Shown piece by piece: positions 49,619-56,045 of a stretch of 64,000 bases of DNA (position 1 is its first letter; the number at the start of each line of letters is the position of its first letter). The position numbers and the translations under genes are program-made. The notes beneath the pieces are model-generated. The model ran no database searches. It was given only the letters and a program-made list of their open reading frames with translations, and was not told the DNA's origin. The DNA comes from a virus: IMG/VR virus record IMGVR_UViG_3300044632_001218. The stretch is one strand, 5' to 3'.

Positions 49619-50158
49619 TTATCTACCCCACACCTTGTCTGAACGGATTGGTATCTCTACCCCACCCAAGTCCCTTACAAATTCTTCTACTGGTAATAGA
49701 CACATAGTTTGCCATTCTTGTTGTGCTAATATCAAGTAAGGGCTTCTTACCTCTGATAATAAGTATTTATGTGCTCCTTTACGAAACTTTGGGATTCTAT
49801 CTTCCATTAAACTCATCACAAGACCCATTCTTTGTTCAGGAGAATAGTAATGTAAGTTCACTGCAAAGAATGACCTTGCATCCATTTCTAAAACAAATGC
49901 TAAAGGATACTTATCATAAAAGGGAAGGTCTCTTCTTGTCTTTGCTTTATACTTATAAAGCATTAAGTTGAATAGCAAAGGAAATGATGTGCTTCTATTT
50001 TGGTCTCGCTCCAAAACATCTCCAACTTCATCTGCCCTTTCTTCTGTTATAATATTTTCAGGACTTTTATCAAATACTTTTTCTCTATACCATTCTCTTG
50101 GTTGACTTCTTCCTCCAGTCTCTTCTTGGATTTCTTCGAAGATAGTTTTATAAGCCAT
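49619..50158 (-). CDS. g2: DNA end protector gp2-like protein
   Basis: YKYKAK...LPFYDKYPL, NLHY, HKYL, LPVEEF. Confidence 0.8.
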   Translation of the reverse strand: MAYKTIFEEIQEETGGRSQPREWYREKVFDKSPENIITEERADEVGDVLERDQNRSTSFPLLFNLMLYKYKAKTRRDLPFYDKYPLAFVLEMDARSFFAVNLHYYSPEQRMGLVMSLMEDRIPKFRKGAHKYLLSEVRSPYLILAQQEWQTMCLLPVEEFVRDLGGVEIPIRSDKVWGR

Positions 50159-50592
50159 TATACCCCCAAGTGGTCTTCAGTCAATATTTGAAACTCCCAT
50201 CTTCTATCCTCACAAAATTCTTTTGCTGCTTTCCATTTTGCTTGGTTCTTAGCAAACTCTTTTATTTCATACATTTGCTTTTGTGACACACGCTTTTGTG
50301 CTTTAGGTCCTTCAACTTGTCTTTTTGGTTTTATTTCAATCAAACTTTCTTTGATATTACCTTTACTATCTTTGTATTTTATAAAAAAGTCAGGAAAATA
50401 TCTATGTACTCTTCTATCTATTGGTGACAAATAAGGAATCCAAATTTCTTCTGATGCCCACTTCATTATATTTTCATTCAAATCACAGTAGGTCATAAAC
50501 TTTCTTTCCCACAATGACCTGTAGACAATATTGTTTGGGTCTCCTATGTATTTTTGTGGATAAGAAGGTTTGTATATTCCTTTATAACTCAT
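50158..50592 (-). CDS. g4: head completion nuclease gp4
   Basis: YRSLWER, WASEE, YFPDF, IEIKP, NQAKW.AA. Confidence 0.9.
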   Translation of the reverse strand: MSYKGIYKPSYPQKYIGDPNNIVYRSLWERKFMTYCDLNENIMKWASEEIWIPYLSPIDRRVHRYFPDFFIKYKDSKGNIKESLIEIKPKRQVEGPKAQKRVSQKQMYEIKEFAKNQAKWKAAKEFCEDRRWEFQILTEDHLGV

Positions 50593-50623: not shown

Positions 50624-51400
50624 ATGGCAGTAGATTACACTAAGTTGTATTATAAAACTGATGATATATTAAAGAAATTTAAACCTTCTTTATCTAATTA
50701 TTTTAATGTGCATGTAAGTGCTGACTATGATGGTATCAACCAATCTTTTGAAAAGGATATAGATTTTTTGGCATATGAGGCAGTTCTTCCAGGAACTTCA
50801 TATGAAACCACGCAAGTATTTGGAGACAGACAAGGAATCACAGAAACATTTGCAAATAAAAGAGTTTATCCTCCTGTAGATATAAGTTTTTATATTGATA
50901 ATAACTATAATATTTTAAGATTTTTTGAAAGTTGGATGGGATATATTAGTCCAAATTCAGGGGTTCCTTATGAGTCATATCAAAAGTTTAATTATCCTCA
51001 AAATAATGGATTAAGTGGATATAAAAAAGAAGTTATTATAACTAAATTTGAAAGAAATTTTAGAACCCCTGACCAAAGATTAGTTGAGAATGGAGTATAT
51101 GATGTTCCTGATAGTAACTGCACTTATATTTTAAGAAATGCTTATCCAACTAATGTAATTGCAGTTCCAGTTTCATATGAAGGCGCAAATATATTAAGAA
51201 CAACAGTAACATTTAATTATGATATTTACAGATTTGAAAAGTCTGATGGAAAACCAATAAATGGTGATGGTGGAAATTCAAGTGCTCAACCTGGAGGAGA
51301 TTCTGGAGCAACATTGGGGGAATTAAATAGACAAGTTAGATTGATTAATGAAAATATTCCTATCACTGGATTAAATCCTAACCCAAGAGATGTGGGATAA
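50624..51400 (+). CDS. tail-tube-fold protein (gp54/gp19-like)
   Basis: AVLPG.S, FYID, FESW, AYPTN...V.VSY, TVTFNY; sits before g26. Confidence 0.65.
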   Translation: MAVDYTKLYYKTDDILKKFKPSLSNYFNVHVSADYDGINQSFEKDIDFLAYEAVLPGTSYETTQVFGDRQGITETFANKRVYPPVDISFYIDNNYNILRFFESWMGYISPNSGVPYESYQKFNYPQNNGLSGYKKEVIITKFERNFRTPDQRLVENGVYDVPDSNCTYILRNAYPTNVIAVPVSYEGANILRTTVTFNYDIYRFEKSDGKPINGDGGNSSAQPGGDSGATLGELNRQVRLINENIPITGLNPNPRDVG

Positions 51401-51429: not shown

Positions 51430-52161
51430 ATGCCTTTACCTACAGTTGCAACTCCAACCTATGAGTTGACATTACCATCAAACAAAAAGACTATTAAGTA
51501 CAGACCTTTCTTAGTCAAGGAAGAAAAGATTCTTATCTTGGCTATGGAAAGTGGTAATTCAAAAGATATTACTAATGCAGTTAAGAATACATTGAAAGAT
51601 TGTATTTTAACCAGAGGCATTAAGATTGATTCTCTTCCAAGTTTTGATATTGAGTATCTGTTTTTAAATATTAGAGCAAAGTCAGTTGGAGAATCAGTAG
51701 AATTAATCATCACCTGTCCAGATGATAATGAAACACGTGTAGATGTTACTGTTAATATTGATGAGATTGAAGTTGTAATTCCAGAAAATCATACATCTGA
51801 AATTAAAGTTGATGATAGTATTACAGTTAAGATGAAGTATCCATCACTTCAAGAGTTTATTGATAATAATTTTGATTTCTCTGGACAAACTGGAAGTAAA
51901 GAAACTATTGACAAATCATTTGATATTGTTGCATCTTGTGTGGATATGGTTTATACCAAAGATGAATCTTGGTCTGCTGCTGATGTTACTAAGAAAGAAT
52001 TGATTGAATGGTTACAGACATTTGATTCAAATCAATTCAAAGGTATTGAAGAGTTCTTTGATACTATGCCTAAACTTTCTCACACATTAACAGTTAAGAA
52101 TCCAAACACTGGCGTTGAGAATGAAATTGTATTGGAGGGACTCTCAAGTTTTTTCGGATAG
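51430..52161 (+). CDS. g26: baseplate hub assembly protein gp26
   Basis: YRPFLVKEEKIL, FDIEYLFLNIRAKSVGE, CPDD, FFDTMPKL, EGLSSFF. Confidence 0.9.
   Translation: MPLPTVATPTYELTLPSNKKTIKYRPFLVKEEKILILAMESGNSKDITNAVKNTLKDCILTRGIKIDSLPSFDIEYLFLNIRAKSVGESVELIITCPDDNETRVDVTVNIDEIEVVIPENHTSEIKVDDSITVKMKYPSLQEFIDNNFDFSGQTGSKETIDKSFDIVASCVDMVYTKDESWSAADVTKKELIEWLQTFDSNQFKGIEEFFDTMPKLSHTLTVKNPNTGVENEIVLEGLSSFFG
52134..52155 (+). other. candidate -1 programmed frameshift signal
   Basis: GGAGG (52134-52138), a 10-nt spacer, then the heptamer T TTT TTC (52149-52155) in the gp26 frame. Confidence 0.6.
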
Positions 52162-52337
52162 TCCTTAGTCATGAAGATTTGGAGTCTTATTATAGAGTTA
52201 ATTTTGCCTTGATGCAGTATCATAAATACTCTTTGACTGAGATTGAAAATATGATGCCGTGGGAACGTGAAATCTACTTAACTCTTTTAGAAAATCATAT
52301 CAAAGAAGAAGAAGAAAAAGCATCAAGAGTAAAATAA
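52161..52337 (+). CDS. g51: baseplate hub assembly catalyst gp51 (-1 frame of g26; first ATG only at 52212; not in track)
   Basis: SHEDLESYYRVNFALMQYHKYSLTEIENMMPWEREIY... Confidence 0.8.
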   Translation, partial: VLSHEDLESYYRVNFALMQYHKYSLTEIENMMPWEREIYLTLLENHIKEEEEKASRVK

Positions 52338-54056
52338 ATGACTCCAGGAGATTTTGGATTTAAAGATAGAGTATCTAGATTTATTTCAGGAGCAAGTTCC
52401 AGAAGTAAATTTGGATTCTCTGCTACGCCAAAACTCACAAGAATTGCTGGGATGTTTCCAAAAAGACAAGTCCCTCAACAAATTGTATCTGGGTCTTCTG
52501 AACAAACAGATCCAGAAATTGGAGCGCCAAAAAGAGTTATTTCTTCTTTAGGAAGATTGACTTTAGACCTTGAGATTGTCAACAATAATCTTGATAGAAT
52601 TGCATCAATTATTCTTCAAGATTATAAAGAAACTCAAGATACAAATAAAAAAGAAATAGAAGATTTTAGAAAAAGAGTTGCAAATAGAGGTAGATTATTT
52701 GGTAAGAAAGAGTTAGGAGATAAGAAATCTGATGTTCTTGGTGCAGTTAAAAAATATGTAGGGTCATTCTTTAGTGGTGCTGGAGGTGCTATCAGAGCAC
52801 TCTCTATGTTTAATTTGATGCAGGGGATTTTATCTGGAGACCCATCTAAAATTATTGGACCACTTCTTGGAATAGGATTAACATATCTTCCTGCTATTGG
52901 TGCTGGAATTGCTGGTGCAGTAGCAACATCTTTGGTTGGGAAGTTATTTGGAGGTGGGGCAGCAACAAGAGCAGCAGCATCAGCAGCTCCTGCAGCAGCT
53001 GGAGCAGGGGGAGCACTTGGAAGATTGGGTAAATTTGGTGGAAGAGCTGCACTTGTTGGTGGAGGAATTGCATTAGCAAGTAGTATCTTCAATAGACCAC
53101 AAGAAGATCAATCACAACAAAGATTAGAAGAACTTACACAACAACAAAAAGCATCAGTAGAACCTGGAAATTTAGTTCCAATTCCACAAGATGATTTGAG
53201 GAGATTCGAAAAATTAAACAAAAAATTTGAAGCAGCACTTGACTTTTTATTAGGCAAACAAAAAGAACAAGACAGGCAACCTCAAAAAACAGGTGGGAGA
53301 GGAGGTGGAGGAGGTGGGGGTGCTCCTCCCCCTCCTGGTCAAATTATGTCAGGACCTGCCCCTGGAGAAATTAATGCTTTGATGTCAGCAATTTCTGGAG
53401 CAGAAGGTGGATTAGAATCAGTTAATAAAATAGGTCCTATGCCTGGTTTGTCTCAAATGACTATTGATGAAGCCATATCAAAAGTTGAATCATTCAGAGC
53501 ACAAGGTAAAACCTCAGGGGCTATGGGCAACATGCAGCAAATGTCTTATTACTTGAGAGAAAGAGCTATAGCAGCAGGGTTAGATCCATCAACAGCATTG
53601 TATAATCAAGAAAATCAATACAAAATTAATAGAGCATATCTTGCCGGTCTTTTTTCTGGAGGAGAACAGGAAATAGTTAATTTAATTAGGTCAGGTAAAA
53701 TCAATGAAGTAGTGAATAAATTAAAAGGAGTTTGGCCATCTCTTCCTGGAGGATCTCAAGAAAATGTTCATACATCAGATTTTTATAGAAGATTTCAAAC
53801 TTTCTTAGGGCAAATATCATCTCCTGGAACTGTAACACCACCAATAAGTCCTGTTGCACCAGCACCAAGATCTGCAGCAACTGCTGCTCCAAGAGCACCA
53901 CAAACACAAGTTACAGTTCTTCCTTTACCAACTCAACAACAATCTTCCCAAGCATCTGCAGTTTCTGGAGGAAATGATACTGTTCCATCAATAGATACTA
54001 CTTATCCTGAAAACTTCTTGGCTTTGTATTCTAAACTAATCTATCAGATTGTTTGA
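52338..54056 (+). CDS. tape-measure-like protein A with a lysozyme-like domain
   Basis: Helical N-terminus, G/A-rich hydrophobic region, then ISGAEGG...SGAMG.MQ...NQENQ...WPSLP, and a Pro-rich tail. Confidence 0.65.
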   Translation: MTPGDFGFKDRVSRFISGASSRSKFGFSATPKLTRIAGMFPKRQVPQQIVSGSSEQTDPEIGAPKRVISSLGRLTLDLEIVNNNLDRIASIILQDYKETQDTNKKEIEDFRKRVANRGRLFGKKELGDKKSDVLGAVKKYVGSFFSGAGGAIRALSMFNLMQGILSGDPSKIIGPLLGIGLTYLPAIGAGIAGAVATSLVGKLFGGGAATRAAASAAPAAAGAGGALGRLGKFGGRAALVGGGIALASSIFNRPQEDQSQQRLEELTQQQKASVEPGNLVPIPQDDLRRFEKLNKKFEAALDFLLGKQKEQDRQPQKTGGRGGGGGGGAPPPPGQIMSGPAPGEINALMSAISGAEGGLESVNKIGPMPGLSQMTIDEAISKVESFRAQGKTSGAMGNMQQMSYYLRERAIAAGLDPSTALYNQENQYKINRAYLAGLFSGGEQEIVNLIRSGKINEVVNKLKGVWPSLPGGSQENVHTSDFYRRFQTFLGQISSPGTVTPPISPVAPAPRSAATAAPRAPQTQVTVLPLPTQQQSSQASAVSGGNDTVPSIDTTYPENFLALYSKLIYQIV

Positions 54057-54059
54057 TAA

Positions 54060-56045
54060 ATGGACCCAACATTACTTCTTAACAGACCAGTTGTAAAACC
54101 AAGAATAGTAGCAAAGATTACGAAGTTTAATAATCTTGTTGAGGTTTCTACTGAAGCTAGAAAGTCTTCTACTAAACTTAGAAAGGTTTTTGAAAAGGGA
54201 AGTTACCAAAAGAAAACCCAACTTTCAGTATTAAACAGATATAAAAAACGATTAGAAACTATTCAGAAACAAAATGATAGATCATTTCGTAAAAAACAAA
54301 GAGTAAAAGTTAAGTTACCAGACATTAAAAAGTATGTTGGAAACTTTTTTACGCCAGGATCTGCTGATGATCCTCTCAAAGCAATAGGAGCACTTGCAGC
54401 ATTTAAAGCAGTTCAAAAAGGTTCTAAAGGTGATTGGGGTGGGGCATTAGCTTCTGGTTTAGTTGCAGCAGGATTAACTCTTGGACCTTCACTGTTGGGA
54501 TTTGGTGCTGGTGCTTTGATGGGTAGAGGGGGAAGAGGAGGAGGTGTTGGTCCTGAAGTAGGAGTTACTCCTCCCAAACCATTAAAACCAGGGTCTATAA
54601 GTAGATTAAATGCATCACAAGCAAGATTCATTCAAGGTAGTGCAAATATTGGTGATAGGGCAAGATTAATTCGTAGAGGAACTATTTCTCCTACAGGGGC
54701 ATTTTCTCGTGGTGGTCCAGAGCAAATGGCAAAGTATGGGGCAGACACCTCAAAAGTTGGAAAAGCATTTGGTAGATTTGGTAAAGCAATTATTCCAGGC
54801 GTTGGTGCTGCAGTTGGGGCTATTGATGCAGGATTGAGAACAAGTGAAGGTGATTACACAGGAGCTAAAATAGCAGGAACATCAGCAACTTTAGATGCAC
54901 TTGCTGCTGCATCTGCTGCTACTGGAATTGGATTGCCAGTTGCTGGATTACTTTCTATTGCATCATTTGCATTAGATGTAACTAATCTTGTTCGTGATTT
55001 AAGTGGCTCAAGTGAAAAAGAAGCACTGGCAAATAAATCTCAGCAAAATAGGTTAAAACAACAAACAGAAAAACAAAAACAAGCAGTTGAGGGTAAGAAG
55101 GAAGAAGGTGGAGCACTTACCTTTAGAAAAACTTTGAATGGTTATGAAAAGGCAGTTAATAAATTTGAAGAATTTGTTAAAGGATTTAAAGGTGGTATGG
55201 GAATGGGTGGGGAACAGTCTGGAGTTATTGAAACTGGAAATAGAGGATTAACTACTGGTGAATCCCTTCAAGATTTAGAAGCAACTGGAGGAGAAGTTCC
55301 AGGAAGACCAGATTCTGCTTATGGCCCAAGAGGAGGAAGACTACACAAGGGGAACGATTATAATAGATCAGTTGGCACTCCAATCAGTATCATACAACCA
55401 GGAACTGTAACTGTTGCAGATATGAATTATGACCCCAGTGGATGGGGAGCAGTAGTTGAGATTAGACATCAAGATGGGTCTATAAGTAGGTATGCACACC
55501 TAAGTCAAATAAATGTTGCAGCAGGAACTCAAGTTTCTCCTGGACAAGTAATAGGAAAAGTTGGTGGTGCTCCTGGTGCTCCAGGATCTGGAAACTCTAC
55601 AGGAGCGCATTTGCATTTTGAATATGAAAATGGTTCAGGAAGAATTGATCCAACTGCAATAGCACCAAGAATTTTTAGATTTGGTGGCGATGTAAGAGTT
55701 AAGCAACAATCAACACAACCACAACCTCCTGGTTCCAGACCAAGCACTGCAGCACAATTGAGAGCAATTGGACAATCTGATGCTGCTTCACTATTAGAAA
55801 GACAACAACCTCCTGCTCCACGTAGACCTCCTTCAATTACACCTCCACCACGAACACCAAGACCTGTTGGAAGTTTTCTTCCATATCAACAAGGAAGTCA
55901 ACAACAAGTCACGGCATTTTATCCTGTGTCACAACCACAACAACAACCTATGCCATCTGAAGATGTTCCTATGATGATGACAGGTCCATCAGAGCAACAG
56001 TTGTTAAATAGTTTCTATAAGAGAGTCCTTCTTAATACTGTATAG
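54060..56045 (+). CDS. tape-measure-like protein B with an M23 peptidase domain
   Basis: HKGND (HxxxD), YAHLS, GQVIG, STGAHLHFE (HxH). Confidence 0.8.
   Translation: MDPTLLLNRPVVKPRIVAKITKFNNLVEVSTEARKSSTKLRKVFEKGSYQKKTQLSVLNRYKKRLETIQKQNDRSFRKKQRVKVKLPDIKKYVGNFFTPGSADDPLKAIGALAAFKAVQKGSKGDWGGALASGLVAAGLTLGPSLLGFGAGALMGRGGRGGGVGPEVGVTPPKPLKPGSISRLNASQARFIQGSANIGDRARLIRRGTISPTGAFSRGGPEQMAKYGADTSKVGKAFGRFGKAIIPGVGAAVGAIDAGLRTSEGDYTGAKIAGTSATLDALAAASAATGIGLPVAGLLSIASFALDVTNLVRDLSGSSEKEALANKSQQNRLKQQTEKQKQAVEGKKEEGGALTFRKTLNGYEKAVNKFEEFVKGFKGGMGMGGEQSGVIETGNRGLTTGESLQDLEATGGEVPGRPDSAYGPRGGRLHKGNDYNRSVGTPISIIQPGTVTVADMNYDPSGWGAVVEIRHQDGSISRYAHLSQINVAAGTQVSPGQVIGKVGGAPGAPGSGNSTGAHLHFEYENGSGRIDPTAIAPRIFRFGGDVRVKQQSTQPQPPGSRPSTAAQLRAIGQSDAASLLERQQPPAPRRPPSITPPPRTPRPVGSFLPYQQGSQQQVTAFYPVSQPQQQPMPSEDVPMMMTGPSEQQLLNSFYKRVLLNTV

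Follow-up and report, generated by a model that had tools for sequence, protein, structure and literature searches.

A candidate −1 frameshift at the gp26/gp51 junction that would give a T4-like cyanophage both of its tail assembly chaperones from one gene

We examined the junction between two overlapping reading frames in a 64,000-nucleotide stretch of viral DNA (IMG/VR virus record IMGVR_UViG_3300044632_001218; hereafter the window), which belongs to a freshwater T4-like cyanophage. The upstream frame encodes a gp26-like protein and the downstream frame a gp51-like domain, and an original prediction, made from the letters of the sequence, had proposed that a programmed −1 frameshift fuses the two. 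Four features define the locus:

51430..52161, + strand: gp26 open reading frame (ORF), the predicted short form of the tail assembly chaperone (TAC-N); 243 residues, 27.4 kDa; stop codon TAG at 52159-52161
52134..52138, + strand: Shine-Dalgarno (SD)-like GGAGG, exactly 10 nucleotides 5′ of the heptamer; possible frameshift stimulator
52149..52155, + strand: slippery heptamer T_TTT_TTC (U_UUU_UUC in the mRNA) in X_XXY_YYZ phase; candidate −1 site with tRNA-Phe in both the P and the A site
52155..52337, + strand: −1 frame extension, a gp51-like C-terminal domain; 60 codons, then TAA at 52335-52337

The 3′ end of the gp26 ORF reads AGT TTT TTC GGA TAG, and on this point the coordinates of the original prediction all hold, including the phase of the heptamer and the spacing of the GGAGG. 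The extension lies in the −1 frame and does not fit a +1 reading (position 52155 is 0 modulo 3, gp26 is 1 modulo 3). The −1 frame is open as of 52125 and, read through the heptamer, gives FF-RIVLSHEDLESYYRVNFALMQYHKY... up to its TAA; counted from the slip point, the 60-residue extension begins RIVLSHEDLESYYR. Joined to gp26 residues 1-242, it gives a predicted long form (TAC-NC) of 302 residues and 34.8 kDa. As had been proposed, the −1 frame carries no ATG before 52212, but the accompanying claim that TTG 52179 is the only start there has to be amended, as a second in-frame TTG lies at 52209, immediately 5′ of the ATG; these two TTG codons are the only in-frame starts ahead of it. The fusion should be recognizable by its peptides: trypsin cleaves at the junction Arg, so that NPNTGVENEIVLEGLSSFFR is a predicted fusion-specific tryptic peptide (the C-terminus of gp26 itself being ...SSFFG), and IVLSHEDLESYYR is a predicted peptide of the extension that no start codon could yield.

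We identified the product of the 243-residue ORF as gp26 because it is a full-length member of two families, PF12322 T4_baseplate (253.6 bits against a cut-off of 24.5; residues 8-242 on profile positions 1-218 of 219) and phrog_150 'baseplate hub' (E 1e-81, positions 5-232). The extension matches phrog_634 'baseplate hub assembly catalyst' (E 2e-28), which bears out the assignment of the −1 frame to gp51, and it also covers the final 49 of the 282 positions (234-282) of phrog_150, the profile of the gp26 family. No chaperone family in Pfam was matched by gp26 or the extension at a threshold of E 10. T4 gp51 (249 residues) carries PF12322 over residues 1-201 followed by a C-terminal tail; it covers positions 13-280 of phrog_150, and T4 gp26 covers positions 14-235. 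The window's extension aligns to T4 gp51 residues 201-245 (E 5e-7), and at the join T4 gp51 reads ...DVF-KLLVNPDE... where the predicted fusion of the window reads ...SFF-RIVLSHED.... Because both the profile spans and the alignment match, the predicted 302-residue fusion is a colinear homologue of T4 gp51, with gp26 as the short form.

T4 and the window thus have in common PF12322, phrog_150 and phrog_634, and a short and a long form that share an N-domain, the long one with the same C-terminal extension. They differ in how the forms are encoded. In T4, genes 26 and 51 are separate and divergently transcribed, and gene 26 ends TTC TTT GAG TTA CTA TAA, without the heptamer; the window has one gene and a −1 ORF that lacks an ATG before 52212. 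Since the T4-type two-gene organization is absent from the window, its locus belongs to the frameshifting branch of the gp26/gp51 family.

We then compared the junction across relatives drawn from IMG/VR and from GenBank phages (248 loci with sufficient flanks, reducing to 198 unique junctions). This set spans Kyanoviridae, phiM12-like phages, Schizotequatrovirus, Emmerichvirinae and many uncultured phages, and reaches protein identities to the window's gp26 as low as about 25-30%. The heptamer T_TTT_TTY was found in phase at 197 of the 198 junctions (T_TTT_TTC in 186 and T_TTT_TTT in 11), usually two codons ahead of the gp26 stop; the sole exception was T4. This conservation extends to synonymous sites. 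Among 195 aligned gp26 genes the first junction Phe codon was TTT in every case (195/195) and the second was TTC in 184 and TTT in 11, with the third-position base preceding the two codons always T, whereas seven other conserved Phe columns of gp26 mix TTT and TTC (101/91, 78/105 and 117/52, for example). Within the window's own clade (59 unique junctions) the ten nucleotides AG TTTTTTC G are invariant, and a gp26 tree built without the junction columns required no loss of the heptamer. In Rhizobium phage RHph_I1_18 (locus L258, 1480-1540) a T_TTT_TTA slip site stands 11 rather than two codons ahead of the gp26 stop; a set distance to the stop is thus no part of the signal. In Vibrio phages D509 (locus L260, 1430-1700) and K474 (locus L261, 1480-1710), distant gp26 relatives, the heptamer has decayed to A_CTT_TTC and G_CTT_TTT, and ATG or GTG codons follow in the −1 frame directly after the gp26 stop.

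The −1 frame beyond the slip site is likewise maintained. It is open at all 197 heptamer junctions (56-73 codons), with no stop between the heptamer and the gp51 body at any of them. In the window's clade, the 0-frame third positions are the variable ones upstream of the invariant block, and immediately beyond it the third positions of the −1 frame take over (mean entropy of 0.88 versus 0.41 and 0.23 at the other two; 59 junctions). As the third-position variation flips frame at the heptamer, purifying selection on the −1 reading begins there, before any start codon. In keeping with this, the 19 residues that precede Met 52212 are conserved as protein and vary synonymously.

Start codons in the same region show no such constancy. 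At 89 of the 197 junctions (about 45%) no ATG lies within seven codons of the slip, and at 61 there is no ATG, GTG or TTG in the first nine codons; an ATG 1-3 codons past the slip site is present in 108 (55%), and one in the short open −1 stretch 5′ of the heptamer in only 4. The window's TTG 52179 is a Leu codon for which relatives vary among TTA, TTG, CTT, CTA and CTG, and the site that is Met in some lineages is Leu, Ile or Phe in others, which is how a hydrophobic residue internal to a protein behaves. The gp26 tree calls for at least 14 gains or losses of a nearby ATG; for starts of any kind the minimum is 22.

To these comparisons we added predicted structures of both parts of the fusion. 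The AlphaFold 2 model of gp26 has a mean predicted local distance difference test score (pLDDT) of 87.4 and a predicted template modelling score of 0.80. When its N-domain (residues 1-95) was compared exhaustively with 48,161 chains in VIA-align, the top match was 3fgx (Z 8.1), followed by the HK97 tail assembly chaperone 2ob9 (Z 7.4; root-mean-square deviation 4.1 Å over 85 of 104 residues) and B. subtilis YqbN, 3klu (Z 7.2), an XkdN-type tail chaperone. These three are small proteins, and unrelated rows reached Z values of at most 4.4. A Foldseek search of the gp26 model against the PDB gave no match at E 1e-3 or better, its most probable row again being 2ob9 (probability 0.28), and a profile search of PDB sequences gave no match. 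The agreement of the top rows, though at moderate Z values, supports a chaperone-like fold for the modelled N-domain. Three helices make up the model of the 60-residue extension (pLDDT 82.8). Most of helix 1 (residues 9-23) is encoded ahead of Met 52212; a peptide initiated at 52212 would therefore be predicted to lose it.

We consider it very likely, from the comparative sequence evidence, that one gene gives this T4-like cyanophage both of its tail (baseplate-hub) assembly chaperones by way of a −1 ribosomal slip on U_UUU_UUC, and the comparison thus lends support to the pair of products originally predicted (gp26 of 243 residues and a gp26-51 fusion of 302). Most ribosomes would translate gp26 and terminate at TAG 52159 to give TAC-N; in a minority, the tRNA-Phe on UUU in the P site and the one on UUC in the A site would each move back by one base and pair with UUU UUU instead, at an efficiency that we infer would leave the short form in the majority. 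The slipped ribosomes would go on to read CGG AUA GUC... in the −1 frame until TAA 52335 and so produce TAC-NC. The GGAGG may pair with the 3′ end of 16S rRNA and make slipping more frequent, in the manner of E. coli dnaX. On the model of lambda G/GT and T4 gp26/gp51, the probable binding partner of both forms would be the tape-measure or hub protein, which they would chaperone during tail initiation while being absent from the virion.

Of the possible stimulators, the SD-like element is common in relatives. Of 197 unique relatives, 134 have a GAGG or GGAGG whose end is 10 nucleotides from the heptamer, and the Glu codon at this site is GAG in 79% of cases, versus 27% elsewhere in gp26. The dnaX-like spacing that the original prediction had pointed to is therefore present in the window and enriched among relatives, yet it is not invariant, since the gp26 tree implies at least 16 changes in the element; GGAGG is kept in only 28 of the 59 junctions of the window's clade. 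From this pattern the SD-like GGAGG is a plausible, non-essential enhancer.

RNA structure downstream of the heptamer varies by lineage. In the window it is not significant (z-score −0.48), and across 75 diverse junctions no consensus structure was found. A downstream hairpin of −10 kcal/mol or stronger is present at 62% of the junctions outside the window's clade, within which such a hairpin is weak or absent. In P-SSM2 (locus L003, 2215-2250) and 38 unique P-SSM2-like junctions, an 11-bp stem begins 5 nucleotides after the heptamer (about −19 kcal/mol, z down to −6) and holds the annotated gp51 ATG inside it. No covariation was detected in this hairpin, as the stem is invariant, and because it is invariant it is indistinguishable from coding constraint; it could stimulate frameshifting, occlude the annotated gp51 ATG, or both. 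The presence of a hairpin did not track the presence of an ATG.

Other explanations of the junction have to be weighed against a ribosomal slip. The same gp26-51 fusion could arise if RNA polymerase added one extra U in the T6 run, so that some mRNAs carried the two ORFs in one frame. The conserved element is indeed a homopolymer run, lengthened to six by the conserved third-position T that precedes it, T runs of 7-8 occur in 11 of 197 relatives, and the window's clade has no downstream RNA structure. Bacterial RNA polymerase, however, needs a run of about 8-9 or more to slip at an appreciable rate, and here the run is just 6 nucleotides in 186 of 197. Moreover, selection has kept TTC rather than the run-lengthening TTT as the last codon in 94% of cases, and only a ribosomal event would explain why an SD-like element is enriched at the dnaX spacing; we regard transcriptional slippage as improbable. 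A different possibility is that no fusion is made, gp51 being a separate small protein initiated at TTG 52179, TTG 52209, ATG 52212 or a non-canonical codon, perhaps by termination-reinitiation, while the T run reflects Phe-Phe and AT-rich codon usage. Each of the 13 GenBank records examined shows two separate annotated genes or no annotated gp51, and none has a joined coding sequence; an ATG follows the slip site closely in the 108 relatives counted above, and D509 and K474 seem to use separate initiation. Against it stand the 19 residues before Met 52212, which are conserved, include most of the predicted helix 1 and align to T4 gp51; the 61 of 197 lineages that have no usable start; the failure of TTG 52179 to be kept as TTG; and the exchange of the 'start' Met with Leu, Ile and Phe. 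Nor can codon bias account for a TTT in 195 of 195 genes that is followed by TTC in 184 of 195 when the other Phe columns are mixed. We judge this reading very improbable, but wherever a lineage has an ATG, gp51 may be initiated independently alongside the slip. Finally, a chance arrangement, a recent frameshift mutation or a sequencing error in an originally fused gene has next to no probability. TTTTTTC is common in the window (39 copies observed versus about 50 expected), so the heptamer by itself is no rarer than chance would have it, but its conservation and phase in relatives are far beyond chance: the same heptamer, phase and open −1 frame recur at 197 unique junctions down to about 25-30% protein identity, and these comparative data refute it.

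Several observations nonetheless weigh against the proposed −1 ribosomal slip. The six-T run could permit slipping of RNA polymerase. The SD-like element is found in about two thirds of relatives only and is evolutionarily labile, and no hairpin is conserved beyond the heptamer in the window's clade (best hairpin −5.5 kcal/mol in the median; alifold consensus −1.5). In the 55% of lineages with an ATG, a free gp51 peptide of 6-7 kDa may also arise. The lineage of D509 and K474 may have exchanged the slip for separate initiation of the gp51 domain, and with these two phages lacking a canonical heptamer and T4 having two genes, the slip is not indispensable to the family.

The predicted arrangement resembles three known cases of −1 frameshifting. 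Levin, Hendrix and Casjens in 1993 and Xu, Hendrix and Duda in 2004 are said to have described lambda gpG/gpGT and the conserved −1 frameshift in tail assembly chaperone genes. In lambda as in the window, two overlapping ORFs lie between the tube-protein gene and the genes for long tail proteins, the first ORF has a canonical X_XXY_YYZ heptamer close to its end, and the long form has an additional C-terminal domain. Unlike lambda gpG, with which it has no detectable sequence similarity, the window's gp26 is about twice the size, with an extra C-terminal half, and its heptamer is U_UUU_UUC rather than G_GGA_AAG. A further difference concerns the target, as T4 gp26/gp51, unlike lambda gpG/gpGT, act on the baseplate hub, and the gene downstream in the window encodes only a putative tape measure.

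In E. coli dnaX, a −1 frameshift on A_AAA_AAG is accompanied by an internal Shine-Dalgarno sequence 10 nucleotides upstream and a 3′ stem-loop. The window shares an SD-like element at a distance of 10 nucleotides on the 5′ side, and its relatives show an excess of GAGG there at a synonymous site; the window differs from dnaX in having no conserved 3′ stem-loop in its clade, an SD-like element that is not invariant, and another heptamer with other tRNAs. The dnaX shift truncates its protein, whereas that of the window would extend it. Phage T7 gene 10A/10B uses a −1 frameshift on G_GUU_UUC and, as predicted for the window, involves an A-site tRNA-Phe that slips from UUC to UUU in a U-rich run of a phage structural gene to give a C-terminally extended minor form. 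The T7 product is a capsid protein, however, and its P-site codon is an imperfect slip partner.

The genes on either side of the junction encode tail proteins or candidates for such:

50624..51400, + strand: tail-tube-like protein gene, 258 residues, directly upstream of gp26; PF23849 Phage_TTP_2 (E 7e-14) and phrog_45 'tail tube' (E 9e-34)
52338..54056, + strand: next gene, 572 residues, Gly/Ala-rich; its ATG at 52338 abuts the stop of the extension; possible muramidase-like C-terminal part
54060..56045, + strand: second long tail protein, 661 residues; M23 peptidase domain PF01551 (E 6.5e-22)

Relatives label the tail-tube-like gene as gp19.2 tail tube monomer or gp54 tube initiator, and such a gene likewise lies upstream of gp26 in phiM12, phi-ST2, ZPAH1 and RHph_I1_18. 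Gene order is conserved here, with a tube-like gene, then gp26/51, then long Gly-rich tail proteins. Farther upstream in the window, ahead of the tube-like gene and on the − strand at 49619-50592, are divergent genes for a gp4-like head completion protein and a gp2-like DNA end protector. The order gp4-like, gp2-like, tube-like also occurs in P-SSM2, S-PM2, S-CAM4, phiM12 and KVP40-like phages, and this is therefore a widely conserved module boundary.

Downstream, the extension stops at 52337 and the next gene starts with ATG 52338, as originally described, but the tape-measure identity proposed for 52338-54056 fared less well, since it relies on position, size and composition. The 572-residue protein has no Pfam or NCBIfam match and no BLASTP similarity to T4 gp29; it matches phrog_90 weakly, and its remaining leads are to tail-tip lysozymes. 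On these grounds we treat it as a putative tape measure or tail lysin. PHROG matches of the 661-residue protein include tape measure families, by way of its M23 part. A search of the tail genes against NCBIfam gave no match, BLASTP detected no significant similarity between the 572- and 661-residue proteins, and neither resembles T4 gp29. All that the two have in common is a short N-terminal (V/I)KKYVG(S/N)FF, followed by Gly/Ala-rich hydrophobic stretches. In the Rhizobium phage relatives, an annotated tape measure lies two genes downstream.

The gp26/gp51 chaperone pair is already known, and the window is one more, unannotated case of it. Vladimirov, Gautam and Davidson (Virology 2022, 566:9-15; PMID 34826709) reportedly showed that in T4-like phages the tail assembly chaperones, TAC-N and TAC-NC, are gp26 and gp51, and the suggestion in the original prediction that such an arrangement had gone undescribed for these phages was wrong. 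Where the PRFect paper cites that work, some T4-like phages are said to have one short and one longer, fused chaperone gene with no frameshifting (PMC10885494); the phage Adele paper cites it on the poly-T signals for −1 slipping that T4-like phages have in their TAC-N genes (PMC12846349). A review of the T4 tail places gp26 and gp51 among the hub assembly chaperones (PMC3004832). In the open-access literature on gp26/gp51, the baseplate hub assembly catalyst or cyanophage chaperone frameshifting we found no other relevant paper. Should the 2022 paper treat essentially the two-gene solution of T4, the new elements would be the strict U_UUU_UUY site in almost all T4-like phages outside Tevenvirinae, the start-less gp51 domains in about 45% of lineages, the SD-like enrichment at the dnaX spacing and the absence of RNA structure in the freshwater clade, with the frameshifted form ancestral and the separate gene 51 of T4 derived; we think this unlikely.

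Public entries for T4-like cyanophages and for phages of Vibrio and Aeromonas treat the region downstream of gp26 in two ways: it is annotated from a nearby ATG as a 50-60-residue 'gp51' or 'baseplate hub assembly catalyst', or, if there is no ATG, is left blank. In the GenBank records of S-CAM4, S-PRM1, vB_VmeM-32 and ZPAH1, the 160-215-nucleotide 'intergenic' gap after gp26 is the open −1 frame of the gp51 domain, which has gone unannotated in these four phages because it has no start codon. A joined coding sequence marked as ribosomal slippage at gp26/gp51 was present in 0 of the 13 GenBank records examined.

Together, our results matter mainly for annotation, in that treating the locus as one frameshifted chaperone gene would give the correct 302-residue product. 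Biologically they add another instance rather than a new principle, the identity of gp26/gp51 as chaperones having already been published. The T4 superfamily would thereby fit the pattern general among long-tailed phages, which produce the tail assembly chaperone in a short and a long version.

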